From positions 5,412 through 69,411 of the forward strand of contig JAYKHY010000011.1 in NCBI GenBank assembly GCA_035285025.1: DNA of 64,000 nucleotides, in the 5' to 3' direction. Of this stretch, positions 2,306 to 40,749 are shown piece after piece. Position 1 is the stretch's first letter. Every line of letters starts with the position of its first letter. This DNA comes from Vampirovibrionales bacterium (lineage in GTDB: Bacteria; Cyanobacteriota; Vampirovibrionia; Vampirovibrionales; JAJTHC01). The position numbers and the translations under genes were made by a program. Under the pieces are notes generated by a model. It worked only from the letters and a program-made list of their open reading frames with translations. It did no database searches and was not told where the DNA came from.

Positions 2306-2588
2306 ATTTGCTTTATACTGACCTAACTGGGTTTAAACGATATTTTTTAAATGCAGTTTTTTTTAAATACAGTTTTAATTTGGCGACTCTGCATTAATTT
2401 AACACCCTGAATGTTATACGCAAGTCAACTTTTAGGCTGCAATGCAATGGCCTCCAAAATCCCCTCTCGGCAATTGTTCGCTAACCCAAATGTCTGATTT
2501 GCCTCTTTAAACTGTACTTTTTTAATCGCATCGTGCGCACCGATGCACCACGCATGCACCACGTAATTTTTAACCCTTTGGCCTTACC

Positions 2589-7041: not shown

Positions 7042-9978
7042 TTACGCTAATGCTTGCACCTGCGTCTGTAAATTGCTCACTTGCGTGGCCAACTCTGAGA
7101 GCTGAGATTGCTTCTCGGCGATGACGGCGTCCGTTGCTTTTTGCGTAAAGCCGGCGTTGCCAAGCAGTTTTTCAAGTTGCGCATGCTCGGCTTGCGCTTT
7201 GGTCAGGACTTTTTCGAGTCGCGCGCGCTCTAGCGCGACATCAATCAATCCGGCCAGCGGCACAAAAATTTGCGCGGAGCCTACCACGCCCGCCGCGGAT
7301 TGCGCTGGTTTTTCGTTCAGTGCGGGGGTCACCATAAGGCGCTCCAGGCGGATAAAATGTCGCAGGATGCGCTCGCCGTCGCGCAGTGCCGCCAGGGTTT
7401 CGGCTTCGGGCGCGACAATAATAACCTCTAGCGCGGTTGCGTGCGGAATTTTATAATTTTGCCGCAGATGCCGAATTTCGCGAACCGCTTCGAGCACAAT
7501 CTGGGTTTGGTGAGCTACCGCCTGATGCTGGGCGAGCCATTCGGTGGTTGCGCCCGGAAACGGCACAAGCGAAATGGATTCGATCGAGCTTGCCGTGTGT
7601 GTCGCGCGCTCGGCGTAGGCCACAGGCCATTGCGCCTGGAGGGTTTGCCAGAGTTTTTCGGTGATGAACGGCATCACTGGGTGCAGCAGCCGCAGCAAGC
7701 CATCAAGCACGGTGCGCAGTACCAGTTGCGTCGTGGCGCCGCGCTCAGGTGTATCGGGGTCTCGCATTTGCCCTTTGGCCATCTCGACGTACCAGTCACA
7801 AAAGGCATCCCAGGCAAAGCGCTGCACGCCCACCGCGTATTCGCCAAATCGGTAGGCTGCAAGGTCTTGCGTAGCCTGCACAACGGTTTCTTGATAGCGG
7901 GCCATAATCCAGCGATCGAGCGGCGTAAGGGCTTCCGCCGGGAGCGCCCAGAGTGTTGTGTCGTTTAAGGGCTCGGCTTGCTGCGGCAGATTCATCATCA
8001 CAAAGCGGGCCGCGTTCCAGAGTTTGTTTGCAAACAGCTTGCCTTCTTCCAGTTTTGCGGGCGAAAGCTTAATATCCTGCCCGCCGTAGGTCACCAGGCT
8101 GGTCAGGCCAAAGCGGAATCCATCGCAGCCGTATTGATCAATAGCCAGCACGGGGTCGACGGTGTTGCCTTTGGATTTGCTCATTTTCTGGCCTTTTTCG
8201 TCGCGAATCAGGCCATGAATGTAGACGGTTTCAAACGGCGACTGGCCGGTGAGCGCAAGGCCCATCATCGTCATGCGCGCGACCCAGAAAAAGATAATAT
8301 CGAAGCCGGTCACGAGCACGCTGGTGGGGTAAAAGCGATGAAAATCGGGTGCGTCTTTTTGTGGCCAATTTAATGTACTCATAGGCCATAAACCAGACGA
8401 AAACCACGTGTCCAGCACGTCTGGGTCGGGAACTAAATCCGTACTGCCCGTCCGCGGGCAGCACGCGGGTTTTTCTTGCGGATTATCGACGTTGACAATC
8501 GGGAATTCGCGATAAATATCATCGGCGGCGTACCACGCCGGAATTTGATGCCCCCACCACAACTGGCGCGAAATGCACCAGTCCTGGATATTTTCTAGCC
8601 AGCGCGTGTAATCGTTCGTCCAGCGCTCGGGAATAAACCGCAGCTCACCTTTTTTCAGGGATTCAAGCGCCGCTTGCGCAAGCGGTGTGGTTTTAACAAA
8701 CCATTGCTTCGAGAGCAGCGGCTCAATCACGCTGCCGTGGCGCTGCGAGTACCCGACGCGGTGCTTGTGCGGCGTTTGCTCAGCCAGTAAGCCGGCGTCG
8801 TCGAGCATCGCGACGACTTGCTTGCGCGCTTCAAACCGATCGACGCCTTGCAACGCTTGCGGCACCCGCGGGTGATTGGCCAGACGGCCGTACAAGTCCA
8901 GAATCACGGGGCGGGGCAGGTTGTGCCGTTGGCCGATTTCAAAGTCGTTTTTATCGTGCGCGGGCGTAATCTTAAGTGCGCCGGTGCCAAAGCCCAGTTC
9001 TACGGCGTCATCTGCGATGACTTTTATAAGCCCCACGCTTTCGTCCGCTGACGCGTTTGGCGCATGGCTTAAGGGCACACGAACGGTTTTGCCAATCCAG
9101 TGCTTAAGGGTGGCATCATCCGGGTGGACGGCCACGGCCACGTCGCCAAAAATGGTTTCGGGCCGCGTTGTGGCGACAAGTAAATAAGGCCCCACGCTAT
9201 CCGAGGCGGCCGCCTCGGGCGCAGGGCCGTCGGCTAAGCGATACTTTAAATGGTAGAGCATCCCCTGCTCTTCGCGGTACTCGACTTCGATATCTGAAAT
9301 AGCAGAGACGCTTTGGGGGCACCAGTTTACAATGTATTCGCCCCGGTAAATCAGGCCGCGTTTGTAGAGTTCTGCAAATGCCTGGCGCACGGCCAGCATG
9401 CGCGCCTCATCCAGGGTAAACGCTTCGCGCTGCCAATCGGGCGAAACGCCAAGCCGCTTAAGCTGCCCCAGAATCGAGCCCTTGCACTGCATCGACCAAT
9501 CGTAGACGCGTGCTAAAAACGCCTCGCGGCCCAGATCGTCGCGGGTTTTGCCTTCGGCTTGCAGTTGGCGCTCGACCACCGTTTGCGTTGCGATGCCGGC
9601 GTGATCCGTGCCGGGAATCCAAACCGTATCGTCACCGCGCATGCGGTGCCAGCGCACCAGAATATCTTGCAGCGTGTTATCGAGCGCGTGGCCCATGTGC
9701 AGCACGCCGGTGACGTTGGGCGGCGGAATGACTAAGCTAAAGCGTCCCGTGCTTTTGTCCGCGGGCGCGGCTGGCGCAGGCGAAAAAAGATTTTGCGATT
9801 CCCAGTAGGCGTAAAGCTCGGCCTCGATGGTTTTAGGCTCAAAGCTGGCTAGCAGTTGCGTTGTTGGCACCTGGGCGGCATCCGTCCGGGATGCATCAGA
9901 ATTTAAGGCGGCAAGGTGAGAGGGGTCGGAGGTATGGAGCGTCATGCATCGTATTGAAGCATAAACAACCCGCGCCAT
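7042..9978 (-). CDS. valS: Valine--tRNA ligase
   Basis: HMGH (HIGH-type) and KMSKS motifs, a C-terminal coiled coil, and ~950-aa class I aaRS architecture. The true start is probably an internal Met (MTLHTSD...). Confidence 0.95.
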   Translation of the reverse strand: MARVVYASIRCMTLHTSDPSHLAALNSDASRTDAAQVPTTQLLASFEPKTIEAELYAYWESQNLFSPAPAAPADKSTGRFSLVIPPPNVTGVLHMGHALDNTLQDILVRWHRMRGDDTVWIPGTDHAGIATQTVVERQLQAEGKTRDDLGREAFLARVYDWSMQCKGSILGQLKRLGVSPDWQREAFTLDEARMLAVRQAFAELYKRGLIYRGEYIVNWCPQSVSAISDIEVEYREEQGMLYHLKYRLADGPAPEAAASDSVGPYLLVATTRPETIFGDVAVAVHPDDATLKHWIGKTVRVPLSHAPNASADESVGLIKVIADDAVELGFGTGALKITPAHDKNDFEIGQRHNLPRPVILDLYGRLANHPRVPQALQGVDRFEARKQVVAMLDDAGLLAEQTPHKHRVGYSQRHGSVIEPLLSKQWFVKTTPLAQAALESLKKGELRFIPERWTNDYTRWLENIQDWCISRQLWWGHQIPAWYAADDIYREFPIVNVDNPQEKPACCPRTGSTDLVPDPDVLDTWFSSGLWPMSTLNWPQKDAPDFHRFYPTSVLVTGFDIIFFWVARMTMMGLALTGQSPFETVYIHGLIRDEKGQKMSKSKGNTVDPVLAIDQYGCDGFRFGLTSLVTYGGQDIKLSPAKLEEGKLFANKLWNAARFVMMNLPQQAEPLNDTTLWALPAEALTPLDRWIMARYQETVVQATQDLAAYRFGEYAVGVQRFAWDAFCDWYVEMAKGQMRDPDTPERGATTQLVLRTVLDGLLRLLHPVMPFITEKLWQTLQAQWPVAYAERATHTASSIESISLVPFPGATTEWLAQHQAVAHQTQIVLEAVREIRHLRQNYKIPHATALEVIIVAPEAETLAALRDGERILRHFIRLERLMVTPALNEKPAQSAAGVVGSAQIFVPLAGLIDVALERARLEKVLTKAQAEHAQLEKLLGNAGFTQKATDAVIAEKQSQLSELATQVSNLQTQVQALA

Positions 9979-10270
9979 GTCGGGTTTTCAAGCGTTTTAA
10001 GCTTGGTTGACTCTGCAGGCAAGGCATGCGTTGCAAGGGATAATGGCTGTTAATTATAATGCTAGACAAATTTGAATATTCTGTTTAAAATGCAAGCCAT
10101 TCTAATGCGCTTAGTGTGCATTTTATGTATACGCGGGGTGCGCTCGCACCTTGGTATTCGCTCTGTTGATATCGTCAATTCATCTATATAAGGAGTCACT
10201 GATAATGACCGTCACGTCAGCATCATTTAGCGGTTTTAAAAAATGGCCGCTAGCAAATCATTAAGTCGGC

Positions 10271-10561
10271 TTGCAGGGTAAAAAGGTAAAAAACTCACCA
10301 AAAGGAGAGGAGCTGGAAGTCGTCGACGATTATTTAGGTGCTGAAAAAAATAATGGGGATCGTACAATTAGCGTCAAAACTTCAACAGGAAAAAAATCTA
10401 TTAGCACAGAGGGATACAGAGTTGTGCCGCCATCGCTATCTGAAAGACTAAGCAAGCGTGCTAAGCGCGATACTAAGATGCTCGCAAATTCGCGTTTTGC
10501 GAAGACTGCAAGCCGAGTAATGCATAACTTAGTCAACTGGATTAACCGCCCAGCGGTCTAG
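10271..10561 (+). CDS. Hypothetical small Lys-rich protein (96 aa) in an AT-rich pocket
   Basis: ORF starting at TTG. Local composition is AT-rich compared with neighbouring genes. A terminator hairpin follows. Start codon is uncertain. Confidence 0.3.
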   Translation: MQGKKVKNSPKGEELEVVDDYLGAEKNNGDRTISVKTSTGKKSISTEGYRVVPPSLSERLSKRAKRDTKMLANSRFAKTASRVMHNLVNWINRPAV

Positions 10562-19675: not shown

Positions 19676-21487
19676 ATGGCTTTGATGCGGTCTATCTTAG
19701 CGTTTTGCCTAAGCCCAATACGGCGTTGGCGCAGGAAAAAACTGGCGCAAAAGGTGCTGGATGCGAAAGCTGCGATAAATAATTGGCAGATTGATGACGC
19801 CGAGGCCCTGGCCCGAAAATTACCCGAAAAAGCTTGCAAGTTTAGGCTTTTGGCCGATATTGCAGCGTTAAACGGCGATGCCCGGATGCTGCACGAGAAC
19901 GCCGTTAAAGCGTTTGCCGAATCTCCGTTTGACGTTAAACACGTTTCGTTAATTAAGCAGGCGGCGGCACAACTAAACTTGCCGTGCGACTTTATGGCGT
20001 CGTTACTTGCGACGCGCCCAGAAACGTTAAAAACATCGGAGTTGTTGGTGTTGCTTCAGCTTTTGCTCGAAGAAGGTTATTTGGACGAATTTAAAGCGGC
20101 TCATCAATCGGCGCTTAATCGTTCGTCGCTTTCAAAAAAGCAGTTAGAACGCCTTTCGATTTTAAATTTTCGATGTTTGTATCTCGAAGAGCACTATGAG
20201 CAACTTTCGCAACTAGGGCAACAACTAGCACAAATGCCCGAGGGTATCGCCAAGTCTTCGGCTGGCTTGGTGGTGTCATCTCTGTTGCAGTTAGGCCGTT
20301 TGCAAGCTGCGCAAGCGTTTTATACGCAATATATTAACCCTGTAGCGCCAGATTCTTTTGCCCCGGTGTATTATCATCTGGTTTTACAGTCGCAAGGCCC
20401 TGCGGCGGCCTACCAGCTATACCGTCTTGATAAAAGCACGCAGAGTCTTCAGAAAGCGTTCCCCGACAAATTTTGCGCAGATGTGGCCGAACTGGCAAAA
20501 GCCCCCGAGGGCGAAAAGTGGTTGCTGGCCAATTACGGCATAGGCGACGAGATTCGTCACGCCGCGATTTATGCCGACCTGGCAAAAACCGTTCAGCCGC
20601 TGTATATTACCTGCGATCCCAGATTGCATTCTTTGCTGCGCCGCAGCTACCCCGAGCTTGAATTTTTTCCGGTGGAGCGCTGGCGCTATGAGTCTCGGTT
20701 TGGGCAGTACCCGGCACGCAAGGCAGTTACGGGCGGGCAATTGTGCGCCATGGTGGCAGATTCTGCCGTATGGCAGCGTTTGACGGCTGCATCGGCCGTG
20801 GGCTCGGTGATTAGCATGATTGGCGCTGTGTGGCCCAGTGATGCTGAGTTTGCCCAAGCGCGCCCGCCTGCTTTAAAAGTAGATGCTGAACGCGTGGAAG
20901 CGTTTAAAGCCAGGTTGCAAGCCCTGAATAAATTTGGGGATGCCTCTGGGCAAGCGGGTAAAACACGATTTGTGGGCTTGTCCTGGCGTAGTTTTTTACA
21001 ATCGGTGAACCGAAACGTTCATTATTTATCGATGCCCGAGATGCTCAAGGCAATTCAGGGGCATGAACACGTGCGCTTTATTAACCTGCAGGTGGCATTA
21101 TCGCCAGAAGAGCGCGAAACGTTTAAAGCGGCCAACATTGAGCTGGTTGAATTACCCGAGCTGGATTTAAAAGATGACTTTGAAGGCATGGCCGCGCTTA
21201 TGGTTGCGCTGGATGCGGTGGTTTCTCCGGCAACAACCATGATTGAGCTTTGCGGCGCGGTTGGAGCGAACGGCTATTTGCTCTCGACCAATTACCAGAC
21301 GGCGTGGCGTAAAAAAGCCGACGGCCGGGATATTTGGCATCAAAGCGTCACGGTGCTTAGCACGGCCAATCGCGAGCACCTCCCCGATGTGTTATCGGCT
21401 GCGATTCGTGCGTTGCCGCCGCGCGTCGCAGCCAATGCGAACGCTGTTGCGGAACCCGTGGCCCTTGCTGCAGTAACGCCCGGCTAA
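19676..21487 (+). CDS. TPR-like N-terminal extension fused to a glycosyltransferase family 9 (heptosyltransferase-like) domain
   Basis: C-terminal motif FEGMAALMVALDAVVSPATTMIELCGAVG matches the GT9 pattern (L..A.VVS.DTG..HLAAALG). An N-terminal GT9-like NYGIGDEIRH motif (residues ~275-600) is also present. The first ~270 aa are helical repeats. Confidence 0.5.
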   Translation: MALMRSILAFCLSPIRRWRRKKLAQKVLDAKAAINNWQIDDAEALARKLPEKACKFRLLADIAALNGDARMLHENAVKAFAESPFDVKHVSLIKQAAAQLNLPCDFMASLLATRPETLKTSELLVLLQLLLEEGYLDEFKAAHQSALNRSSLSKKQLERLSILNFRCLYLEEHYEQLSQLGQQLAQMPEGIAKSSAGLVVSSLLQLGRLQAAQAFYTQYINPVAPDSFAPVYYHLVLQSQGPAAAYQLYRLDKSTQSLQKAFPDKFCADVAELAKAPEGEKWLLANYGIGDEIRHAAIYADLAKTVQPLYITCDPRLHSLLRRSYPELEFFPVERWRYESRFGQYPARKAVTGGQLCAMVADSAVWQRLTAASAVGSVISMIGAVWPSDAEFAQARPPALKVDAERVEAFKARLQALNKFGDASGQAGKTRFVGLSWRSFLQSVNRNVHYLSMPEMLKAIQGHEHVRFINLQVALSPEERETFKAANIELVELPELDLKDDFEGMAALMVALDAVVSPATTMIELCGAVGANGYLLSTNYQTAWRKKADGRDIWHQSVTVLSTANREHLPDVLSAAIRALPPRVAANANAVAEPVALAAVTPG

Positions 21488-29191: not shown

Positions 29192-30085
29192 ATGCTTCGT
29201 CTGGGCGAAATTGAATACTTGAATACGCTGCCCTTTAGCGCAGTGTTTTTGGACTTAGAATTAAAAGAAGACGCTCATTCCATAAGCGGCACGCGTTGTG
29301 GCATGAGCGTTATAAAAGATACCCCGGCGGGCCTGAACGCGAAATTACTGGCTGGCGAGCTGGACGCCTCGGGCGTGTCGGCGGCGTGTTTACTGCAAAA
29401 CCCACAGGCGCTGATTCAGCTGCCGGGTTTGGGCATTAGCAGCCCCGGCCCGGTGATGAGCGTAACTGTGCTGAGCCCCGTGCCTTGGGCGGCACTCGCG
29501 GAGCAACCTGCGATTCAGGTCACGCCCGCCTCGGCCAGCGCGCGCGCGATGCTAAAGGGACTTCTGTTAGAGCAATTCGGTCAATATCCTGTGTTTGAGG
29601 AACTTAGAGATGCCCACAGGGAGGGAGCGCGAGGGAGGGAACGGCCCTCGAAAAAAAGCCATGTTCGCTTGGAAACAATCCCTCCACTCCAACCAAAGCT
29701 CATTATTGGCGATGCCGCGCTGGCCGAGCTGGATAACCCGAACTGGCCTTATAAACTGGATTTGGCGAGCCAATGGCACGCGCACACCGGCTTGCCCGCT
29801 GTGTTTGGCGTGTGGGCTGCGCGTCGCGCGTGGGCTGAGCAACACCCCGAGGCGTTTATTGCGCTTTCGGAGGCATTGCAAGCCGCAGCAAATTGCTATA
29901 AAACAGAGGCACATCGACAGGCGCAGGTGCTAGAGCTGGCTTACAATCGCTCGGATTTGCCCAGAGCGCGCCTTGAAACGTACCTGACATGCGCTATAGA
30001 CTATGCGTGGCAAGATGCGCACGCGCAAGCCTTGGCTCGGTTGGGCGAAATGCTCAAGCTTGAACGGACAACGTTACCCGCATGA
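29192..30085 (+). CDS. Menaquinone biosynthesis protein MqnA/MqnD family (futalosine pathway; chorismate dehydratase-like)
   Basis: N-terminal LRLGEIEYLNTLPF matches the MqnA (G.I.YLN..P) signature with a periplasmic-binding-protein-like fold. A charged low-complexity insert (DAHREGARGRERPSKKSH) is present. The stop overlaps the tsaD start. Confidence 0.65.
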   Translation: MLRLGEIEYLNTLPFSAVFLDLELKEDAHSISGTRCGMSVIKDTPAGLNAKLLAGELDASGVSAACLLQNPQALIQLPGLGISSPGPVMSVTVLSPVPWAALAEQPAIQVTPASASARAMLKGLLLEQFGQYPVFEELRDAHREGARGRERPSKKSHVRLETIPPLQPKLIIGDAALAELDNPNWPYKLDLASQWHAHTGLPAVFGVWAARRAWAEQHPEAFIALSEALQAAANCYKTEAHRQAQVLELAYNRSDLPRARLETYLTCAIDYAWQDAHAQALARLGEMLKLERTTLPA

Positions 30086-31110
30086 AAATCTTAGCCCTTG
30101 AATCCAGTTGTGACGATACCGGTGCCGCCATTATTGAGGATGGTCGGCGCGTGCTGGCCAACAAAGTAGCGTCTCAGGTGCAAATCCATACCCCGTTTGG
30201 TGGCGTACTGCCCGAAGCGGCTGCGCGCGAGCATTTGCTGGCCGTTAACGCGGTGGTGCAGGCAGCACTCGATGAAGCTGGCCTGAGTTTGGCAGACATG
30301 GATGCGTTTGCGGCGACCATAGGGCCGGGGCTGATTGGCTCGTTACTGATTGCATCGAGTACGGCGAAAGCCTTGAGTTTACTGACCGCAAAGCCTTTTT
30401 TAGGGATTAATCATTTATATGGCCACGTCGCCAGCGCGTATCTGGAAAGTGATTTAGAACCGCCGTTTTTATGTTTACTCGTCAGTGGCGGGCATACGCA
30501 GCTGATTCATGTCAAATCATTTTCGGACATGCAGATTTTGGGCGAAACGCTGGATGACGCTGTAGGCGAGGCGTATGACAAAACCGCGCGCTTGCTGGGG
30601 TTGCCCTTCCCCGGGGGGCCGGTGCTGGATAAACTGGCGGCGCAAGGCGACGCAACGCGATTTGAATTGCCGATTGCCAAAACGCAGTCGCCTTGGGATT
30701 TTAGCTTTAGCGGACTCAAAACGGCGGTGAATCGTCAGTGGTCAGGCTTGCTTCAGGCGCACCCGGATTGGAATCCTGCGCTGGATACAGACAATAACGA
30801 CAGCCCGTTTGCGCAAGCACGTGCCGACATGGCGGCGAGCTTCCAGCGCGTGGCGGTTAAAACCTTGCTGGATAAAACGCTTGCTTGCGCCAAGGCGCAC
30901 GGATTACAGCAGGTTTCGATTTGCGGCGGCGTGGCGGCCAATAGCGCACTGCGGCAGGCGTTTTGGGGGTGCGAGGCCGTGTCTGCCACGATTCCGGCGT
31001 TTAGATTTTGTACCGATAACGCCGCCATGATTGGCGCGAGCGCCTTTTTTAACCCAATCACGCAGGATTTGGGGCAGGATGTGTTTTCTCGGGTGTTGGT
31101 TCGGGCTTAG
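30082..31110 (+). CDS. tsaD: tRNA N6-adenosine threonylcarbamoyltransferase TsaD (Kae1/YgjD)
   Basis: MKILALESSCDDTGAAI N-terminus and full-length TsaD similarity with its metal-binding His pair. Confidence 0.9.
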   Translation: MKILALESSCDDTGAAIIEDGRRVLANKVASQVQIHTPFGGVLPEAAAREHLLAVNAVVQAALDEAGLSLADMDAFAATIGPGLIGSLLIASSTAKALSLLTAKPFLGINHLYGHVASAYLESDLEPPFLCLLVSGGHTQLIHVKSFSDMQILGETLDDAVGEAYDKTARLLGLPFPGGPVLDKLAAQGDATRFELPIAKTQSPWDFSFSGLKTAVNRQWSGLLQAHPDWNPALDTDNNDSPFAQARADMAASFQRVAVKTLLDKTLACAKAHGLQQVSICGGVAANSALRQAFWGCEAVSATIPAFRFCTDNAAMIGASAFFNPITQDLGQDVFSRVLVRA

Positions 31111-31417
31111 CGCTTACCTCAGGAAATCATAAATTTGCTTCGCTATGCAAAACGCGCGCGCAGGGTTAGGCTATAACACATCAGCGCTTTTAACAGAATA
31201 TTTCGCTCGAATGGCGAGTTAGCTTGCCTGTGCGGGCTGGGCGTTATAAAAACGCTTTTTTACATAAAAGCGTCGCCTCTCCCGCGCCCCTTGAACGTTT
31301 TTCTGGGGAAACTCGCTCAACCCGTTTGTAAAAATGATTCTTGATTATTGGTTTTCAACTAACTGACAATTCACGTTATTTAAACCACTTTTTAAAAAGA
31401 GGAGCATACGCACGCCT

Positions 31418-31846
31418 ATGGCGCGTTTTATTGTGCTGGCCAGCGGAGCCACTGCTGCTAGTCGACCAGATCCGAATTTGCTTGCGACCACAAATCCAGA
31501 GTGGTCTGGGCCGTTGGATCCGCCCGGTGCGGCGTGGCAAAGTCAGGGGAGTAAGGCGTTATTCCCGTTGGAGCCATTAACCGGCGGCGGCGACACGCCC
31601 ATGATTGTGGCGTTGATGCCTGGGGCCGGGGTGACCAGTGTGGATATCAGCGCGTGGTTTTACGTGGATGGCGTTGCGCAGTGGCTCCAGTTTAATAAGA
31701 ACACGCCAACGCTAACGTTGACGCAAAAATCTCTGGTGTTTATCGAGAATCCTTCTGGGCTGCCTTGCTATATTCAGCTGAGCAATTTTGTGGGCGGCAC
31801 GACGGCTAGTTTGTACGCCGATGCGCAGACGGCACAGATTGCTTGA
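31418..31846 (+). CDS. Hypothetical protein (142 aa), first gene of the phage-like cluster
   Basis: Strong SD AAGAGGAG 8 nt before the ATG. No signal peptide beyond a weakly hydrophobic N-terminus. Confidence 0.55.
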   Translation: MARFIVLASGATAASRPDPNLLATTNPEWSGPLDPPGAAWQSQGSKALFPLEPLTGGGDTPMIVALMPGAGVTSVDISAWFYVDGVAQWLQFNKNTPTLTLTQKSLVFIENPSGLPCYIQLSNFVGGTTASLYADAQTAQIA

Positions 31847-31873
31847 GTCTAGTTTTGCGTTGGAGTGTGCAGG

Positions 31874-32848
31874 ATGTATACCCGTTTTGGCATGAATACT
31901 TTTGGCGCGGGGCTAATGCGCCGCTCGGTAACCACGGGCTTGAACCGGCGAGGTAAGCAATTGGGCAAAACTGTTCAGTACGACCAACCCACACACGAGT
32001 GGTTGTTTAACGCGGCGGACGGCGTCGTGATTCGAGATCAGGCAGGGGCGACGGATTTGCAGTTAAACACGGTCGGCACCCCGTCCATGCAATGGGTGGG
32101 TAGCGCGGCCACACGAGGCCTGGATATGAACACGCCGCCGACCAGCTATAACCCCGATAATTATTGGCGCGCTGTTAATAGCCTTGGCTACAATCATACG
32201 GCGTTTACGGTGTACGCCTGGATTACCATGAACACCGCCGATGATATTTTTGATTTTATGGCGTTTAGCAAGCTCAGTGGTAGTGTTAATCCTTACCGCT
32301 GGAAGCTGGGCGTGGGCCACAGCAAGCATTTTGAGCCACGTACCGTGTTTGCCTCGGGGCAGGGTGATTATTGGCTCCGCAGCGCAATGGCGGGTTTGCC
32401 AAATCATCCGTCTGGGCCGAATCAGGGCACGGAATATCAATCCAAAATGCCAATCGTGTATCGGTTGGGCGGCACCAAAAAATACGTCAGTTTTGTCGAT
32501 GGGCAAACGTATCTGGTTAAGTTTGGCTGGCAAACAATCGGCCCCAATAACGCCTATACCGAGGTGGGCATTGCAAAAAACGGTGATGCTTTTGGGTTTG
32601 ATCCGGAAGGCACAGGGCCGGATGCCGCGTTTAAAACCCAATGGCGACGCGAGTTTAGCGGCCGAACAATGGTATTGCCTACCGCTGGCGAAGCGTCGCT
32701 GTACCGGCTGACCAGCAATTCGGCACCCGTAAGCGAGCAAAGCGATGTGACGTATCACAAGATTTTGTATTACGACACGCTCAAGGGGTTTGAGCATGAC
32801 CAGCGCGTGTTTGCCGATGGACTGAATAAAAACAGCTGGTTTAGTTGA
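31874..32848 (+). CDS. Hypothetical beta-rich protein, possibly ConA/LamG-like (324 aa)
   Basis: ATG at 31874 with a GGAG SD (the 6-frame ORF begins at 31865). TAFTVYAWITMNTADDIF resembles the core strand of LamG-like lectin folds. No signal peptide. Confidence 0.55.
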   Translation: MYTRFGMNTFGAGLMRRSVTTGLNRRGKQLGKTVQYDQPTHEWLFNAADGVVIRDQAGATDLQLNTVGTPSMQWVGSAATRGLDMNTPPTSYNPDNYWRAVNSLGYNHTAFTVYAWITMNTADDIFDFMAFSKLSGSVNPYRWKLGVGHSKHFEPRTVFASGQGDYWLRSAMAGLPNHPSGPNQGTEYQSKMPIVYRLGGTKKYVSFVDGQTYLVKFGWQTIGPNNAYTEVGIAKNGDAFGFDPEGTGPDAAFKTQWRREFSGRTMVLPTAGEASLYRLTSNSAPVSEQSDVTYHKILYYDTLKGFEHDQRVFADGLNKNSWFS

Positions 32849-32901
32849 GTTTGGATTTTCTCGGGAATGATAGTAATAAAATTTTGAGGAGCAGAGACTT
32901 T

Positions 32902-33390
32902 ATGGCGATTTTTGCAGACGGCACGATTATTACCACCGAAGGTAACGGGGCGTATCTTGATACGCTAATCCAGACCGGTAAAACCCTGACCAATAACGCG
33001 GGCGGCAGCATTGCAGGCGCCACGCTGCATACCCCCAGGCACCTGGCGGCTTACGAACACAGCGACGGCACCACGGGTGCGGTAGGCGTTAAAAGCACGC
33101 GCGGCTTGCCGGTGGTGTACCAAAGCGCAACCGAGACACTGGCGCAAGAAACCGTGGGTACAACCAGCGCTGCGTTTGCGGCCATTGCTAGCCTGACGGA
33201 AGGCGTGCACGTAAAAGCGCTGGCGAGTAACACCGGCCAGGTTTACCTTAAAAAAGGCGCGACGGCGACCACCGGTAACGGCTGGGAGCTTTCCGCAAAA
33301 GACGAGGTGTTTATACGGTGCGGCAACGCCAACGAGATTAACGCCATTGCCAGTGCCGCCGGGCAGAAAGTGTGCGTGAAAGCATGGTAG
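32902..33390 (+). CDS. Hypothetical small beta-rich protein (163 aa), phage structural-like
   Basis: GAGGAG SD 9 nt before the ATG at 32902 (the 6-frame ORF begins at 32845). Gly/Thr/Ala-rich. Overlaps the next gene by 7 nt. Confidence 0.5.
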   Translation: MAIFADGTIITTEGNGAYLDTLIQTGKTLTNNAGGSIAGATLHTPRHLAAYEHSDGTTGAVGVKSTRGLPVVYQSATETLAQETVGTTSAAFAAIASLTEGVHVKALASNTGQVYLKKGATATTGNGWELSAKDEVFIRCGNANEINAIASAAGQKVCVKAW

Positions 33391-34373
33391 TGCGTTTGAA
33401 GCCGGGTGCCGGTAACCCATCGTTACTAAAACTTGCTAACTACCGTGGCTTTAATGCTAACCCGGTGGTGATTCCGGTTTATGTACCACCCGCGCCGCCC
33501 GCGCCGACCGGCGATTTGCTGGATGACTTGGCCGCGCTTGGCGTAACGCCTGCCTATGCGTGGTCGATTACCAAAATAAAAAGCACGTATAACGGGCCAG
33601 CGGTTAAAATACGGCGTGCCAGCGACAACGCCGAGCAGGATATTAACTTTTTAAGCAACCGGACGCTGGATGCGTCGACACTGGCCAGTTTTTGCGGATC
33701 GTCCATTGGCTACGTGACCACCTGGTACGACCAAAGCGGTAACGCGCGCCACGCCACGCAAACCTCGCAGGCGCAACAGCCCATACTCTGGAGCGGCACG
33801 GCCATTAACACGATTAACGGCGCGCCGGGCCTGTTGTTTGATGGCAGCGATGACGGCCTGACGTTTCCGAATACCGGGGCGGTGACGGGTAACAACGCCT
33901 TAACGCTTGCGGTATGGGCGGGCGGCAATAACACCGCCAATACGGCGGGCTCGATTTTAAACCAAAGTTCGGTAGCAACCCGCAGCAGCGCCTACATTTG
34001 GGTCAGTCAGTCAGCAGCGACCGTGGAGCTGCGAACCTTTGGCGATAATCTGAGCCTGGGTGGCGGCTCGTTTGTGGTGGGCGACCGAAACGCGTTTATC
34101 TGGCGTTACGACCCGACGCCAAACCCGACCTACGGCACGCTGAGCGGCCATGTGCTTTACCGACAGGGCCAGAACGATACGCTAAACGGCGAAATTTTTG
34201 ATACACACGCTCTGGGCGGGGCCATGGTACTTTCGGCCTCGGTGCTGGCGATTGGGCGGCGCAGCACAACCAGTGACCGGTTTAACGGCACGGTGATGGC
34301 GGCGTTGTATATTCCGGCCGCGCTGGCCAGTTGGCCTAGTGTCAAGACCGTGCTTCAGCAGTACTGGACGTAA
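33384..34373 (+). CDS. LamG (concanavalin A-like lectin/glucanase) domain protein, phage tail-fibre/receptor-binding-like
   Basis: WYDQSGNARHAT...PGLLFDGSDDGLTFPN...ALTLAVWAG...FNGTVMAALYIPAAL matches the LamG_3 pattern (D.SGNGNH..., FDG.DD, WV, F.G.IDEV.IY..ALS). Start ATG overlaps the upstream stop (ATGGTAG). No signal peptide. Confidence 0.6.
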   Translation: MVVRLKPGAGNPSLLKLANYRGFNANPVVIPVYVPPAPPAPTGDLLDDLAALGVTPAYAWSITKIKSTYNGPAVKIRRASDNAEQDINFLSNRTLDASTLASFCGSSIGYVTTWYDQSGNARHATQTSQAQQPILWSGTAINTINGAPGLLFDGSDDGLTFPNTGAVTGNNALTLAVWAGGNNTANTAGSILNQSSVATRSSAYIWVSQSAATVELRTFGDNLSLGGGSFVVGDRNAFIWRYDPTPNPTYGTLSGHVLYRQGQNDTLNGEIFDTHALGGAMVLSASVLAIGRRSTTSDRFNGTVMAALYIPAALASWPSVKTVLQQYWT

Positions 34374-34580
34374 GTTCGAGGCTTCTCTGGGGCGCATAAG
34401 CTGTGTTGTTCGTCGCTCAAAATCCTCACGTAGTTTTTTAAACGCTGCGGTTTTTGCTCCTCACGCCTTGCTTCTGCATCCCCATAAAATCCTCTTTTTA
34501 AAAAATCATAAAAAAGCTCGTCATTTAGACGAAAGCCGTCATAAGGATTTTGAATCAAAAAGTAATCAGAGAGAGTCAAG

Positions 34581-34937
34581 ATGGACGTGATTAACACCCT
34601 CGAAAATAGTATTCAGGCCGGCATGCAAGTCGGGATTCCGGCGATGGCGGGCAGCGTGCTGGTGTTTTTAATCAACATTGGCCTGTTTGCCACCAAGGCC
34701 GAGCTGCAAGCGTTGCGCGCAGACCTGATTCAGCAAAGCATCAGCCGAGACGAAGTCGAGCGCGCGCTGGCCAAAATCGAGCGCACGATTCAGGACGCGC
34801 TGGCCATGCTTCGGCAGGACGTGCGCGATGATTTTCAGGAGCTTAAAAGCGATGTTCAAGCGCTGCGCGGCGCGCTGACCGGTATTACGCCGCTTAAAAA
34901 AAGAAACTCTGGCAGCGGAGGGCGCGCGGATGGCTGA
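34581..34937 (+). CDS. Single-TM plus coiled-coil membrane protein (holin-like or i-spanin-like)
   Basis: N-terminal TM helix VGIPAMAGSVLVFLINIGLF followed by a ~70-aa heptad-rich coiled coil. It has its own AT-rich promoter gap upstream. The stop overlaps the peptidase start (ATGGCTGA). Confidence 0.6.
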   Translation: MDVINTLENSIQAGMQVGIPAMAGSVLVFLINIGLFATKAELQALRADLIQQSISRDEVERALAKIERTIQDALAMLRQDVRDDFQELKSDVQALRGALTGITPLKKRNSGSGGRADG

Positions 34938-35355
34938 ATCTTCGTCTAAAAAAAAGCTCGATCCTGATTTGCAGTTAGCGCCAAACTTTTACCTGCGAGA
35001 ATTTTTACCCGATGGCGTGCTGCCTGAAGCCTTGCCAAAACCGGTACTAGAGAATTTACGGCGATTGGCCACGCAGTTGCAGGCCCTGCGCAATGGCGTG
35101 TTTAACGGCCGGGCGATTCGCATTAGCCCCAACGGCGGCGGCTACCGCACGCGTTTGCTGAACCAGCAATTGGGCGGCGCGCCACACAGTTTCCATTTAC
35201 AGGGCATGGCCGCCGATATTAACGTGGCCGGTTTGAGTCCCAGGCAGGTGCAAAGCTTGTTAAAAGCCTGGCCCGGCGGGCTGGGGGCGTACCCTGGGCA
35301 TACGCACGTGGATTTTGGCCCGCACCGCCGTTGGGCGGGGGTGTATAACAAGTAG
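34930..35355 (+). CDS. Peptidase M15 (Peptidase_M15_3/YcbK-like) zinc peptidoglycan endopeptidase, endolysin-like; no signal peptide
   Basis: Motifs YLREF..., SFHLQGMAADI (H-x6-D zinc ligands) and HTHVDF are typical of M15 L,D/D,D-peptidases of phage endolysin type. GGAGGG SD. Translationally coupled to the upstream TM gene. Confidence 0.7.
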   Translation: MAESSSKKKLDPDLQLAPNFYLREFLPDGVLPEALPKPVLENLRRLATQLQALRNGVFNGRAIRISPNGGGYRTRLLNQQLGGAPHSFHLQGMAADINVAGLSPRQVQSLLKAWPGGLGAYPGHTHVDFGPHRRWAGVYNK

Positions 35356-35410
35356 CGCGTTATTCTGGCTTTTACCAGAATGACAAACGTTGCATGATGG
35401 AGAGATACTA

Positions 35411-36091
35411 ATGCAAACGATTTTGATTCATGGCATTGGTGATAACCAGGCAAATTTTGCCGAGCGCTGGCAGACTGCAGCGCTGCTAAACTTGCCCGAG
35501 CGCAGCGTCGTGTCGTTTTATTACGAGGATTTGATGGATGAGACCTCGGCTAACGTGCTAATGCAATTGCTGGTTAAGGCGGCCGAGGTGTTTTTCCGGG
35601 TGCCGTTGCAAACCGCGGGGATTTTGATTCCAGAGTATGTGGGCGATGTTGTGGCGTTTTTGTTTGATGCCCGGTTGCGAGAGGCTATTGCGACGCGATT
35701 AAGGATTCAACTTGAGCCGCTTGCCAAGGACGATCAATTGCTCGTGATTGGGCACTCTCAGGGGGCGTTGGTGGCGGTTTGGTTGTTGCTGACCCAGCCG
35801 TGGCTATTGCAAGGCCGAACCATTACGCTGGCCACGCTTGGGTGCCCACTGGGCAGCCCGGTGCAGGGCATGGCAACGCTGCTTAAAAAGCTGTTCCCGG
35901 TTAAAAAGCCGCTGGGCCGCCCGAATATTGCCCGCTGGATTAACGTGCACTCCAAGCTGGATCCGCTCAGTGGTGAGATTCGGGGCCTGGGCTGCGACAC
36001 GCAGGTGCAGGCGATGATGCACCAGGGTGTGTTTCACCGGAGTATTCAGGGGTATCTTAAGTTGCTGGCGGGGGCGCTTCAGGCAGAGTAA
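35411..36091 (+). CDS. Alpha/beta-hydrolase fold serine esterase/lipase-like protein (GHSQG nucleophile elbow); no signal peptide
   Basis: ILIHGIGD (oxyanion region), LVIGHSQGALV (GxSxG), and downstream Asp/His candidates (KLDPLSG, MHQGVFH). The ATG at 35411 has a GGAGAG SD (the 6-frame ORF begins at 35390). Confidence 0.55.
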   Translation: MQTILIHGIGDNQANFAERWQTAALLNLPERSVVSFYYEDLMDETSANVLMQLLVKAAEVFFRVPLQTAGILIPEYVGDVVAFLFDARLREAIATRLRIQLEPLAKDDQLLVIGHSQGALVAVWLLLTQPWLLQGRTITLATLGCPLGSPVQGMATLLKKLFPVKKPLGRPNIARWINVHSKLDPLSGEIRGLGCDTQVQAMMHQGVFHRSIQGYLKLLAGALQAE

Positions 36092-36157
36092 ACTGGAGTA
36101 CGCTTGCCTGTTGCTATGCAAGTGCTCGTGGTGTTGTTTTAGGCGGCAGAGACCAAC

Positions 36158-37567
36158 ATGCTTTTATTGAAGCGCATTTTAAAATCATTATTTGCAGGCT
36201 TTTGGCTGACGACCCTGATTGCATTGGGCGCCATGCACTTAGGCGGTTGCCAGTCCGCGAACCATGAGCGCGAGCAGGCGACGCCTGTGACGCTGACGCT
36301 TTGGACGCTGCAAATGCAGCCGTTTGAAACCTTGGTACGCAAGGCCATTACGGATTTTGAGCACCAGCACCCCGGCGTGCGCGTGCAGTGGGAAGATCTG
36401 CCTTTTGCAGAAGGCAAAAAACGCGCGTTGGCCGCGGTGCTGAGCCCGCGGGTGCCGGACGTGATTAACCTGAACCCCGGTTTTGCCGCGCTGCTGGCCC
36501 AGCGCGGCGCGCTGCTAGATATGAACACCGAATTATCCGCCGAGCAGCAAGCGGATTACGTGCCCGTAGTGTGGGAAGCCGTTCAGCTACAAAGACGCCT
36601 CACAGCTGGGCGGCCTGTCGGCGTTGGCGTGAGGCATGCAAATATTGCAGTAGGCTTGCCTTGGTACGTAACGACGACGGTGACGATGAGTAACGCCGCG
36701 CTGCTAAAACAGGCGGGTTGGCAGCACCCGCCCGAGACACTGGCCGAGCTGGAGCAATTGGGCCACGCCCTAAAACCACTGGGGTACAAGGCCCTAATGC
36801 CCGCGATTGCCGAGAACGGCGCGTTTTTAAAGCTGCTGCGCCGCGCAGGGCTGGAGCCGGTGCAAAACGGGTGTCTGGTTTGGGCGGGGCTGCCCGAAGT
36901 CCGGCGCCAGTTGGCGTTTTATAAACGCCTTTACGATGCGCGACTAATCCCGGCGGAATCCTTGACGGCGGGGCACCGGGCGGCTGTAGAGCAATATTTA
37001 AGCGGGCGACTGGCGCTGCTAAGCAGCGGCCCGAATTTTTTGGGCATGGTTAAAGACAACGCACCCGAGGTTTACGCGCAAACGCAGGTTTCGCCTGCAA
37101 TCCCGATGGCGGGCTATAATCAGCACGCGTATCTGGATGTTTCTGCCATGGTGCTAAGCGTACCCAGTAAAAGTGCGCATCCCAAGCTGGCCATTGCGTT
37201 GGCGCGCACGTTGGCGGGGCCTGAGTTTCAGTTGGCGCTGGCTAAAACCGTGCCGGTGTTGCCTTCGGTTAAGGCGGCATACGCGCAAGCGCCCGCGTTT
37301 TTTGGCTTAACGCCCTCGGCCACCCCTCGCGTGCATACTGTAGATTCTGCCATGACGGCTGGGCGTTGGCTGACCGCGCAACAATTATTGGGCGCTAAAG
37401 CAACGAATCCGGTGTTACCCAACGAGGCGCAACTGAATACGGCAGTTGATTACGCCATTCAGAGTGTGTTGCTTGATCGTAGCGATATTCCTGAAGCGCT
37501 GAGTCATGCCGAACAGCGGGTTAACGCGGGCACGTGCGTAACCACCGCCGAAAGCTTGGCGCAATAA
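36158..37567 (+). CDS. Extracellular solute-binding lipoprotein (ABC SBP family 1, sugar-type)
   Basis: Lipoprotein signal with LGGC lipobox and an SBP_bac_1-like fold. No adjacent permease or ATPase genes. Confidence 0.65.
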   Translation: MLLLKRILKSLFAGFWLTTLIALGAMHLGGCQSANHEREQATPVTLTLWTLQMQPFETLVRKAITDFEHQHPGVRVQWEDLPFAEGKKRALAAVLSPRVPDVINLNPGFAALLAQRGALLDMNTELSAEQQADYVPVVWEAVQLQRRLTAGRPVGVGVRHANIAVGLPWYVTTTVTMSNAALLKQAGWQHPPETLAELEQLGHALKPLGYKALMPAIAENGAFLKLLRRAGLEPVQNGCLVWAGLPEVRRQLAFYKRLYDARLIPAESLTAGHRAAVEQYLSGRLALLSSGPNFLGMVKDNAPEVYAQTQVSPAIPMAGYNQHAYLDVSAMVLSVPSKSAHPKLAIALARTLAGPEFQLALAKTVPVLPSVKAAYAQAPAFFGLTPSATPRVHTVDSAMTAGRWLTAQQLLGAKATNPVLPNEAQLNTAVDYAIQSVLLDRSDIPEALSHAEQRVNAGTCVTTAESLAQ

Positions 37568-37638: not shown

Positions 37639-39021
37639 CTATTTGCCCGAATCAGACGACCAGCCTGAATCAGACGACCAGAAAGATTCCAGCGAGCGAT
37701 TGAGTGCATCGCTTAGCCGGTGCCATTGCGCGCCGGTTTGCGTGGGCACCCCGGTTTCAATCGCGGTTAAAAACGCCTGATTGTTGGCGGGCGCTTGCGC
37801 AGGGTCTAAAAACGCGCTGCTCTGCGCCACGGCTTGCCGCGCCGGTATAATCAGCCCGCTTTGGCTAAACGCTCGGCTGGCTTGCGCGCTGGTTAAAAAT
37901 TTGGCCAGCGCCAATGCCTCGTCCGGGTGGCGCGTCCGGCGCGAAATCGCATAGCCCGCGCTATCGATACCCACACGGGAGCCGCTCGGCCCTTGCGGTA
38001 ACGTGGTGACGTTCCAGTTAAATTTGGCGCGCTGCCGTAATACGGGCACGCTCCAGCGGCCGTTAATCATCATGGCAAGTTCGCCCGCAATAAATTTATC
38101 CGTCATGGGCGTGCTGCCGGTTTGCGCTCGGCTGGGCGCAAGGTGGTAGCGATGCACTAAATCGCGGTAAAACGTCAAGCCCTCGCGGGTTTGAGCATCC
38201 TGCAGCAACGCTTGTGGCTGTTCGACGCCAGCAAGGCCGCGCCCGCCCCAGCTGTAGGCAAACGGCAGCCAGTAAAGCGCCGGCGTACGATAAAACGAGA
38301 GCGCAAACGCCGTACTGTTTTGAGGCACGCCGTTTGCCGCAAGGAGTTTAGGGCCGAACGCCAGGACGGATTGCCAGGTGGTGGCGGCGTTGGGCGCAGG
38401 CACGCCCGCGCGCTTGAACCAGTCTGCGTTGTAGTACAGTACCAGATTCGAGACATCTCGCGGGAGCGCGTACAAGGTTTGTGAGCCCCTTGGCCAGCTA
38501 AACGCCTTGAGCGCGTTGGGGTAAAATGCTTGGCCAAGGCGCGATAGCTGCTGAGCGCCGGCCAGGTTCTTGAGTTGATGCGTTTGCGCGTAAACCGGTA
38601 GGTAATCGCTGCCCATCAGCATCACGTCGGGCGGTTGATTTGCCGCCATGAGCAAATGCAGCTTGGGGTAATAATAGTCTGGAATATGCGTTAGCGAGAC
38701 GCGAATTGCGGGGTGGCGCGCCTGGAAGTTGGCCAGCAGTGGCTTTAGCGTGGCGAGTTCTTGCGCGCTGCCCCAAGTGGCTAAGTTTAGGACTATTTTA
38801 GACCTGGCGGCCTCTTGTTTTGTGGCGGTCGGTGTATGCTGGCAGCCAGAAAGTAATCCAACCCCGATGCCGATAATGATAAGCAGGCCGCACGCCAACA
38901 AAGGCGATAAGTAAGGCGAACCCTTGCGCAGGGGCAAATGGTGTTTTAAAAGCGCGAGCATGCCAGTTATTTTAGCCTGAGTTAATTTTGTTTGTCGCGT
39001 AAAGCTTAGCGTAAGACCCAT
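37639..39021 (-). CDS. Extracellular solute-binding lipoprotein (ABC SBP family 1), second orphan copy
   Basis: Signal peptide with LSGC lipobox and SBP family 1 similarity. The C-terminal tail SSDSGWSSDSGK is encoded by an 18-bp tandem duplication. Confidence 0.65.
   Translation of the reverse strand: MGLTLSFTRQTKLTQAKITGMLALLKHHLPLRKGSPYLSPLLACGLLIIIGIGVGLLSGCQHTPTATKQEAARSKIVLNLATWGSAQELATLKPLLANFQARHPAIRVSLTHIPDYYYPKLHLLMAANQPPDVMLMGSDYLPVYAQTHQLKNLAGAQQLSRLGQAFYPNALKAFSWPRGSQTLYALPRDVSNLVLYYNADWFKRAGVPAPNAATTWQSVLAFGPKLLAANGVPQNSTAFALSFYRTPALYWLPFAYSWGGRGLAGVEQPQALLQDAQTREGLTFYRDLVHRYHLAPSRAQTGSTPMTDKFIAGELAMMINGRWSVPVLRQRAKFNWNVTTLPQGPSGSRVGIDSAGYAISRRTRHPDEALALAKFLTSAQASRAFSQSGLIIPARQAVAQSSAFLDPAQAPANNQAFLTAIETGVPTQTGAQWHRLSDALNRSLESFWSSDSGWSSDSGK
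37651..37686 (-). repeat. 18-bp tandem direct repeat (x2) encoding the SDSGWS tail of the SBP
   Basis: cctgaatcagacgaccag repeated twice in tandem (near-identical). Confidence 0.6.
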
Positions 39022-40459: not shown

Positions 40460-40660
40460 CTTTTATGCGTATGAACAACAACGGAACAACCCAAAACGAA
40501 TTTGTATAAATACAGCTTCTATTAAGTACATCAAAGTGTGTGACGCTTGCGTGTTTTAACTAGCTTACCAAGCCATGACGTTTAGAAGAAGCCTGCGTTC
40601 CGGAAAAAGGTTTAAGTTAAAATAAAGTTTAAGCTTGGGTTGACCAAGTTTAAACGTTTT

Positions 40661-40734
40661 GGCCCTGTAGTTCAGTTGGATAGAACGGCGCACTCCTAAC
40701 GCGCATGTCGGGGGTTCGACTCCCTCCAGGGTCA
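40661..40734 (+). tRNA. tRNA-Arg (anticodon CCU)
   Basis: Hand-folded: acceptor GGCCCTG/CAGGGTC, D-arm GTTC/GAAC, anticodon loop CTCCTAA, T-arm GGGGG-TTCGACT-CCCTC, discriminator A. No CCA encoded. Confidence 0.85.
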
Positions 40735-40749
40735 TTTTTTAAAAGGTGA

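Follow-up and report, generated by a model that had tools for sequence, protein, structure and literature searches.

The locus examined here raises the question of why seven co-oriented genes that resemble phage fibre and lysis genes lie between housekeeping genes in a Vampirovibrionales genome. The DNA analysed (the window) was a 64-kb stretch of a Vampirovibrionales metagenome-assembled genome (GCA_035285025.1, contig JAYKHY010000011.1, positions 5,412–69,411, forward strand). ORF calling gave seven intact ORFs in one orientation at 31418–36091, all on the forward strand and designated O1–O7, with mqnA-tsaD on the left flank and lipoprotein SBP gene(s) on the right. Separate gene calling on a Logan contig from this sample gave matching ORFs O1–O7, which agreed with the layout of seven genes between two housekeeping genes given in the preliminary description. 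Of the two stop/start overlaps that it reported, the 7-nt overlap of O3 and O4 was found, but the 4-nt overlap of O2 and O3 was not upheld, as it needs an unsupported TTG start at 32845 (giving an O3 of 181 aa) and homology starts only at 32902. O5 and O6 overlapped by 8 nt, and the AT-rich gap of ∼200 bp noted ahead of the lysis-like genes measured 207 nt between O4 and O5, with 41.5% GC. O5 alone among the seven proteins had a predicted TM or signal-peptide-like N-terminus, in line with the earlier statement that O1–O4 carry no signal peptide. When composition was compared, as had been proposed, the GC3 and codon usage of the block were indistinguishable from those of host genes; such values could reflect either a donor phage adapted to its host or a long stay in the chromosome. 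No informative PADLOC or NCBIfam match was obtained for the block proteins, the intergenic DNA contained no pseudogene fragments of upstream phage genes, and a scan for sigma-70 promoters upstream of O1 and O5 gave nothing convincing.

It was found that the gene order of the block is that of uncultured podophages. On L037, a 36.6-kb marine podophage contig (TARA scaffold, ERZ28653697), the portal, capsid and SU10-type adaptor genes are followed by genes of 143, 321, 244, 280, 100, 122 and 220 aa, and matches to O1, O2, O6, O7 and, weakly, O5 were observed. A second contig, L035 (JGI 3300032322 Ga0335305_1524807), matched O2, O3, O4 and O6. Of these two contigs, O3 and O4 were detectable in L035 alone and O1 and O7 in L037 alone; combined, they matched six of the seven genes significantly, and O5 weakly and by position, with the gene order shared throughout. 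Like the block, the phages encode in the same order a small protein, a ConA-like protein, two fibre-region proteins, a TM plus coiled-coil protein and an M15 peptidase, and L037, the only one of the two to do so, has a lipase-like hydrolase after the M15 gene. They differ from the block in amino acid sequence (27–48% identity) and in carrying full head, connector and early modules, and in L035 two additional small genes (61 and 62 aa) separate the O5-like gene from the M15 gene. The 469-aa gene after the L037 hydrolase has the length of the window's SBP gene, but the two were not homologous.

Among 80 loci retrieved by an M15-alignment scan, more than two block genes were present only in L040, which is apparently the same phage as L035 (identical tblastn matches), and two were present in L039. 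Scans of IMG/VR with O6 alone, with the O1 alignment and with the O7 alignment returned nothing, as did a search of metagenomes for the SBP protein; the O1 alignment recovered two 2.4-kb metagenome contigs, in which O1 was the sole match and which were too short to provide a neighbourhood. Judged from the sequences, the fibre-to-lysis module of seven genes is conserved in uncultured podophages. The donor comes from a lineage of podophages, with a connector of T7/SU10 type, that is hardly sampled so far and has no cultured representative. Because the related phage contigs, as far as they are visible, showed no integrase, a temperate lifestyle of the donor is unproven.

The first four genes correspond to the fibre region of these phages. 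O1 (31418–31846, 142 aa), probably a small virion- or fibre-associated protein, shared 38% identity (133 aa aligned, E 1e-21) with the product of the 143-aa L037 gene, which lies directly 5′ of the O2 homologue; it had no match in Pfam, PHROG or NCBIfam. O2 (31874–32848, 324 aa) and O4 (33384–34373, 329 aa) were both modelled as ConA-like β-sandwiches, the O2 model being of moderate confidence. The tailspike gp15 of the cyanophage Pan3 (PDB 9vyh chain q) was the first structural match for O2 and the second for O4, at 8–14% sequence identity and with no sequence-level match, while the best structural match of O4 was the GH54 arabinofuranosidase fold. The modelled fold and its likeness to a cyanopodophage tailspike favour the suggestion that O2 is a second LamG/ConA-like protein, and point to a putative tailspike or receptor-binding-type role. 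A full HMMER search found five distant homologues of O2 among 1.8 billion representatives. O2 had no close homologue among ∼15 billion proteins, where the word-index search returned the query alone, and no tblastn match to isolated phages. PDB sequence searches with O1, O2 and O3 gave chance-level matches only.

For O4, described at first as a clear LamG/ConA-like lectin, the ConA-like fold was retained but not the Pfam LamG membership, and the protein is instead GH54-like. Neither O2 nor O4 matched PF13385 (Laminin_G_3) at E ≤ 1; in phage contigs this domain was carried by genes adjoining O4 homologues. O4 matched PF09206 (E 9e-11) and phrog_10356, ‘virion structural protein’ (E 4e-16), and kept all 22 of the 22 family-invariant residues. 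Although O4 shares this profile and the fold with the GH54 α-L-arabinofuranosidase B (PF09206; PDB 1wd3), the sequence similarity was limited to the first 70–90 residues of the domain, with the catalytic residues beyond the alignment, and the arabinose-binding C-terminal domain was not detected in O4. Phage members are annotated as structural proteins. O3 (32902–33390, 162 aa), placed by its matches in the structural region of phages, matched a 249-aa gene located after the O2 homologue in L035 (E 2e-12 and 1e-7) and a 154-aa gene after the O2 homologue on the T7-like contig L038 (E 1e-5).

The remaining three genes are lysis-like. O5 (34581–34937, 118 aa) has one predicted TM at residues 19–37 followed by a coiled coil, as had been described for the first gene after the gap. 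It weakly matched Rz-like spanin PHROGs (E 6e-4 to 0.03) and TIGR03495 LysB (E 0.007), suggesting a lysis accessory protein of the Rz-like i-spanin or single-TM holin-like type. The same architecture was observed directly 5′ of the M15 gene in L037 and L039, with weak sequence similarity to O5; in and around O5 and O6, no small lipoprotein-type ORF (o-spanin) turned up. O6 (34930–35355, 141 aa) is an M15 (LAS-type) zinc peptidoglycan peptidase, with matches to Peptidase_M15_3 (PF08291, E 3e-11, 43.9 bits against a curated cut-off of 23.2 bits), the endolysin family phrog_894 (E 7e-19) and PDB 1lbu (E 1e-3). It was 45–63% identical to the M15 gene products of L035, L037 and L039, and the zinc ligands, H89 and D96 of an H-x6-D motif and the C-terminal His H126, were invariant across O6 and its phage orthologues. 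The score above the cut-off and the intact ligands bear out the proposed M15 endopeptidase, or endolysin. O7 (35411–36091, 226 aa), which had been taken as an α/β-hydrolase closing the block, gave weak α/β-hydrolase/lipase matches in Pfam and PDB, and its HG motif and GHSxG nucleophile elbow were conserved, consistent with a lipase/esterase-like serine hydrolase. It shared 27% identity with a 220-aa PGAP1-like protein of L037 (221 aa aligned, E 1.5e-15); because the gene for that protein likewise follows directly 3′ of the M15 gene, O7 was regarded as part of the phage module.

No other phage parts were recognised around the block. As the preliminary description had stated, an integrase, capsid, terminase or tail partner is missing from the window: Pfam and PHROG scans of the ∼40 other ORFs were negative for all four, and Logan contigs reaching 2–3.5 kb beyond each window end contained host genes and no recognisable phage parts. 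The block is also away from any tRNA, the nearest, Arg-CCT at 40660–40735, being 4.5 kb off, and integration at a tRNA was thus rejected. A tailocin, eCIS or other contractile injection system was rejected, since sheath, tube and baseplate genes were absent from the window and the related phages are podophages. An anti-phage defence system was rejected likewise, the sole PADLOC match being a chance-level ZorB hit for O5 (E 0.012).

Synteny was compared with related genomes. In the nearest relative found (TsaD 68% identical), mqnA-tsaD was present and the block was absent, but the SBP gene was absent too and the downstream genes differed, so the direct succession of tsaD and the SBP gene that would mark an insertion was not seen. 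No genome closer than this relative was found to show an empty site, and protein searches gave no conservation of the block outside the single genome. A contig scan with TsaD yielded distant phyla only, Vampirovibrionales not among them, as the exact peptides it used lie in variable parts of the protein; synteny therefore rests on protein matches and contig look-ups.

The search for att-like direct repeats at the block ends revealed a 16-nt candidate, which is imperfect and was evaluated post hoc. Its left copy, GAGTTAGCTTGCCTGT, lies at 31216–31231 (forward strand) between tsaD and O1, and its right copy, GAGTACGCTTGCCTGT, at 36096–36111 (forward strand) in the stretch from the O7 stop codon to the start of the SBP gene. 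The copies matched at 14 of 16 positions and the pattern occurred at just these two sites in the window; in the post hoc test an equal match arose in 3 of 1000 shuffles and in 6 of 456 random genomic windows. Directly after the left copy, 3′ of tsaD, there is a terminator-like hairpin (31239–31257, forward strand) with a 7-pair stem followed by TTTTTACA, a match to consensus only. A palindromic motif, CCACTTTTTAAAAAGAGGA (31385–31403), is located just 5′ of O1 and overlaps the O1 Shine-Dalgarno sequence. The pattern CCWCTTTTTAAAAA was found at two window sites only, with 0.22 expected: upstream of O1 and at 34491–34504 (forward strand), where the second copy, CCTCTTTTTAAAAA, lies in the AT-rich O4–O5 gap and forms with 31389–31403 a perfect 15-nt inverted repeat.

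Phage homology and collinearity favour the first of the two readings proposed at the outset, a decayed prophage end that kept fibres and lysis genes. We consider it probable that the block represents the last seven late-operon (virion and lysis) genes of a podophage, stranded in the chromosome, and the block is most likely a cryptic prophage remnant of an ordinary kind. In the intact phage, O1–O4 would make up the tail fibres or spikes or be attached to them, with O2 and O4 of carbohydrate-recognition type; at the end of infection O5 and the cytoplasmic O6 would breach the inner membrane and cut the peptide links of peptidoglycan, and O7 would probably aid in dismantling the outer envelope. 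The terminase, portal, capsid, adaptor and nozzle genes, upstream in the phage, and all early genes are absent here. Because head and tail are missing, there is no virion in which the fibre proteins could act, and the block presumably has no present function in the host. The most likely history would be insertion into the chromosome 3′ of tsaD, then loss of the interior in one large deletion that spared both att-like repeats; a less likely route would be the illegitimate capture of a phage fragment. As a counterpoint to a remnant, each of the seven ORFs has the full length of its phage counterpart, O4 keeps its invariant residues, and O6 and O7 keep their catalytic motifs; an old remnant in neutral decay would not be expected to be so intact.

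Cryptic prophages with late genes only are known from E. coli K-12, in which e14 has tail-fibre genes and DLP12 the lysis cassette essD-ybcS-rzpD. The block resembles them in its isolated late genes, its housekeeping neighbourhood, the lack of capsid, terminase and replication genes, and its intact fibre and lysis genes. It differs in having no integrase or invertase, a podophage donor and a Vampirovibrionales host, and in keeping both the fibre and the lysis modules, which survive together because they were adjacent in the donor genome.

A working unit, either releasing the two ConA-like proteins from a subpopulation in a T10SS-like manner or encoding the fibres and lysis proteins of a GTA-like system that derives from a podophage and is dispersed over the genome, was judged improbable. 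The first form, a domesticated module, we hold to be slightly less probable again: O5 and O6, perhaps with O7, would release O1–O4 and the hydrolase, for example so that a predatory Vampirovibrionales cell could adhere to its prey or attack it. T10SSs are holin/endopeptidase/spanin cassettes such as ChiWXYZ and the Yersinia entomophaga lysis cassette (PMC10847048, PMC10109510), and they derive from phage lysis cassettes (PMC10847048, PMC13284979), which provides a precedent. By analogy, a small membrane protein and a zinc peptidoglycan peptidase beside putative cargo without signal peptides might serve export, O1–O4, O6 and O7 all lacking such a peptide; every ORF and catalytic motif is intact, the composition is host-like, and a motif confined to these two sites in the window precedes both sub-operons. 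However, the ‘cargo’ genes are fibre genes of the phage itself, still in their native order, and since genes and gene order both coincide exactly with the phage late-operon end, the arrangement needs no host-level selection. Moreover, the nearest relative is without the block, O2 has no close homologue in the proteins searched and hence there is no sign of vertical conservation across host lineages, a clear holin and an o-spanin lipoprotein are missing, and neither an associated regulator nor a cargo gene of non-phage origin was found. No positive evidence for domestication was found.

Somewhat less credible still is that the block is one locus of a dispersed, functional GTA-like system, or of an intact prophage with its other parts elsewhere in the genome. 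The tail-fibre and lysis genes of RcGTA occupy loci apart from its head-tail cluster, the genes here are intact and only ∼70 kb of the genome was inspected; against this, no head or tail gene occurred within 30 kb on either side, and we know of no podophage-derived GTA. A chimera of assembly or binning, in which a co-occurring phage fragment was wrongly joined between host segments, is very improbable, for although the source is a metagenome-assembled genome and the boundaries lie in low-GC intergenic DNA (44% GC at the left), the same junctions were present in a second assembly of the sample (the 12-kb Logan contig L001), GC3 and codon usage match the host, two simultaneous wrong junctions would be needed, each inside a short intergenic region, and the 16-nt bounding repeat is too short to mislead an assembler.

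Vampirovibrionales are a non-photosynthetic sister lineage of Cyanobacteria, and a full-text literature search for ‘Vampirovibrionales’ with ‘prophage’ indicated that little is apparently published on phage traces in them, the one work retrieved, a journal paper with its preprint, dealing with a different topic. The stranded podophage genes tie a Vampirovibrionales host to a lineage of podophages whose structural affinity is with the tailspikes of cyanopodophages, and add O2-type proteins, which are extremely rare in current databases. The O7-type hydrolase right after the endolysin would be a candidate outer-envelope lysis factor, its positional analogue being mycobacteriophage LysB. As a remnant, the block would be ordinary biology; if its genes proved to be under purifying selection, it would become a candidate domesticated release or adhesion module in a predatory bacterium, which would be considerably more interesting.

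In the Vampirovibrionales metagenome-assembled genome that yielded the window, tsaD (30082-31110), whose translation is coupled to that of mqnA, and a gene for a lipoprotein-type solute-binding protein (SBP) of SBP_bac_1/SBP_bac_8 type (36158-37567, +) enclose the seven co-oriented ORFs of the block. A second SBP_bac_1/SBP_bac_8 gene (37639-39021, −) is convergent with this SBP gene. By ORF calling, O1 was located at 31418-31846, O2 at 31874-32848, O3 at 32902-33390, O4 at 33384-34373, O5 at 34581-34937, O6 at 34930-35355 and O7 at 35411-36091, all on the forward strand. Genes called independently on a Logan contig (12 kb) assembled from this sample again gave O1-O7 and both junctions, and the coordinates and gene descriptions in the preliminary description agreed with both calls. 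The 4-nt overlap of O2 and O3 given there, however, exists only with a TTG start at 32845, whereas the homology to phage proteins starts at the ATG at 32902. The tsaD-O1 spacer (307 nt, 44% GC) and the O4-O5 gap (207 nt, 41.5% GC) are AT-rich. The NCBI proteins for O2 and O4, encoded on a contig of 71 kb, are MEB3244669.1 (VKJ06_01620) and MEB3244671.1, respectively. An 80-aa GTG-start ORF on the reverse strand (34355-34597) crosses the O4-O5 gap and overlaps both gene ends; it showed no NCBIfam or PADLOC match and no match in related phage contigs, and is probably non-coding. No terminator-like site was found in the 66 nt that separate O7 from the first SBP gene, so transcriptional read-through from the block into the latter would be possible.

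The block stands apart from other phage genes. Pfam scans of 30 other large ORFs of the window turned up housekeeping genes alone, including ValRS, ATP synthase beta, a MacB-type ABC transporter, YchF, Der, RNase PH, a futalosine-pathway radical-SAM enzyme, MqnA, HtrA, LigA, gyrA and UvrD. Of ten ORFs compared with PHROGs (six Pfam-less and four outside the Pfam scans), none matched a structural phage family, and the two matches obtained were to families of unknown function. Host genes were found on Logan contigs reaching 2-3.5 kb beyond each window end. Across roughly 70 kb, the claim that the block lacks a partner gene for an integrase, capsid, terminase or tail tube held. The closest tRNA is 4.5 kb distant. 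A 603-aa ORF (19676-21487, +) between GNAT acetyltransferase and RNase PH genes, 10 kb from the block, had no Pfam family at E<=1e-5 but matched phrog_36377 (unknown function) with an E of 5.5e-63; it may derive from a phage, or PHROGs may have taken in a host gene.

Collinearity with two uncultured podophage contigs, L035 and L037, argued decisively for a phage origin and bore out the reading of the block as a phage remnant. L037, a marine contig of 36.6 kb, encodes a portal, a capsid and an SU10-type adaptor, then genes of 525, 360 and 119 aa, followed by genes of 143, 321, 244, 280, 100, 122 (M15) and 220 aa (PGAP1-like hydrolase), one more gene and reverse-strand early genes. By tblastn, O1 matched the 143-aa gene (38% identity, 1e-21), O2 the 321-aa gene (4e-18), O6 the M15 gene (45%, 2e-27) and O7 the hydrolase (27% over 221 aa, 1.5e-15), while the alignment of O5 with the 100-aa gene was weak (E 0.25). 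In L035, a 32.7-kb contig with an SU10-type portal and adaptor, consecutive genes matched O2 (2e-25), O3 (2e-12), O4 (8e-14) and O6 (5e-34). Chained tblastx of the block gave E values of 2e-81 against L035 and 2e-51 against L037, with no matches in its intergenic DNA. All seven genes therefore derive from a single ancestral stretch of phage DNA, in which a podophage late operon ran from fibre to lysis genes at its end. O7 is included: it had been described as an appendix to the block, but its homologue in L037 lies directly in the collinear segment.

In a T7-like contig with a Gp10A-type capsid, tube, nozzle, gp13 and gp14 (L038, ENA ERZ27264819 k141_751521), O2 and O3 homologues were found at 2055-3471 between the major capsid and tail-tube genes, not at the operon end, implying that O2 and O3 travel together from one podophage backbone to another.

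The two proteins described as lectin-like, O2 and O4, proved to be so at the fold level, and neither matched Pfam Laminin_G_3. O4 scored above the Pfam cut-off for PF09206 (GH54 arabinofuranosidase catalytic domain), but its sequence similarity to the GH54 enzyme ends after about 90 residues; it also matched phrog_10356 'virion structural protein'. Its 780 homologues were mainly metagenomic proteins of 280 or 550 aa. Both contexts inspected were phage contigs encoding a neck protein of T4 gp13 type; one also encodes PhoH, and the other has several Laminin_G_3 genes together with one for Peptidase_S74. Here the O4 domain occurred in tandem genes and also twice per protein. Tandem PF09206/Laminin_G_3 gene arrays were seen in three metagenomic phage contigs (L002 10001-15799, L003 1257-9001 and L004 10001-16212), and single 550-aa proteins carry a duplicated, conserved N-terminal part (roughly 100 residues) of the domain. 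In isolated phages (Gordonia, Arthrobacter, Synechococcus S-CBS4 and Aphanizomenon CL131), it lies within proteins annotated as minor tail or as virion structural proteins. All 22 family-invariant residues, including every invariant N-terminal one, were kept in O4, with changes at near-invariant C-terminal positions between residues 306 and 328 (E306A, N323V, N325Q and Y328W), which could reflect lineage divergence or the onset of relaxed constraint. O2 matched only itself in a word-index search, and a full HMMER search of 1.8 billion representatives yielded five distant homologues; all three with fetched genomic context were on phage contigs. In one homologue, P0246, a collagen-like stretch of Gly-X-Y repeats, about 40 residues long and also seen in some fibre proteins, is fused at the N-terminus to the O2-type beta-sandwich domain.

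On the lysis side, O6 retained the LAS zinc ligands H89, D96 and H126. O7 and its phage orthologue have HG and GHSxG motifs in common, and O7 weakly resembles lipases. O5 has one transmembrane segment (residues 19-37) followed by a coiled coil, an architecture also present upstream of the M15 genes in L035, L037 and an IMG/VR contig, L039. It might be either holin-like or i-spanin-like; its matches to Rz-like spanins were weak, and no o-spanin-like lipoprotein ORF was found in or near O5 and O6. L039 (IMGVR_UViG_3300032308_002752) encodes, within 9592-10390, the closest phage M15 peptidase found (63% identity to O6). Its GC is host-like (0.55), a 133-aa protein overlaps the M15 start, an O4-type gene lies 5 kb upstream and the contig ends 400 nt past the M15 gene. 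It may represent a phage of a related host.

In the nearest available relative (TsaD 68% identical, same study), mqnA-tsaD is kept, the gene after tsaD is a convergent response-regulator gene, and both the block and the SBP gene are missing; the next relative is different once more. The block is thus not conserved. It had been proposed that tsaD directly before the SBP gene elsewhere would indicate an insertion; the block was absent, but so was the SBP gene, so no clean empty site was seen. The shared mqnA-tsaD pair occupies 29192-31110 in the window, with a 4-nt overlap, and 3913-5788 in the relative's locus (L031). An Amidase_3 gene two genes upstream of this pair in the relative is 28 kb away and inverted in the window, so synteny has been extensively rearranged between the two.

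As for the att-like direct repeats suggested for the boundaries, the pattern GAGTNNGCTTGCCTGT has exactly two sites in the 64 kb, at 31216 and 36096, in direct orientation and one in each bounding intergenic region. The repeat is imperfect, with the copy form GAGT..GCTTGCCTGT. In a post hoc test, 3 of 1000 shuffles and 6 of 456 random genomic windows gave a match as good as that between the two bounding regions. Because of the imperfection and the post hoc nature of the test, the repeat is regarded as a candidate att remnant only. The layout fits a lambda-like arrangement, with one att site next to the end of the late operon; a single internal deletion would then have removed all between the other att site and O1. 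Another motif, CCWCTTTTTAAAAA, has its sole sites in the window at 31385-31403 and 34490-34504 (0.22 expected). The first copy is palindromic, lies just 5' of O1 and overlaps the Shine-Dalgarno sequence; the second lies in the AT-rich O4-O5 gap, about 90 nt upstream of O5, and the two copies make up a perfect 15-nt inverted repeat around O1-O4. None of the phage loci fetched contains the motif, which may be a late promoter or operator of a phage.

Comparison of the block with host genes showed that GC, GC3 and codon adaptiveness of O1-O7 were all in the host range (z-scores −1.2 to +1.9). All seven ORFs are full length, which fits either selection or a recent transfer from a phage adapted to the host. 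No close O2 homologue was found among about 15 billion proteins and no second genome carrying the block was found; therefore, there was no evidence for vertical retention. Since the gene order is also the phage's own, the block is probably an ordinary stranded phage fragment. A T10SS-like (type 10 secretion system) release module (for comparison, PMC10847048, PMC13284979) or a dispersed GTA-like (gene transfer agent) locus, both functional readings, is improbable. An assembly artefact is more improbable still. New about this probable phage fragment are the lineage of its host, how rare the lineage of the phage is, and the module of fibre, M15 and lipase-like genes that is conserved.
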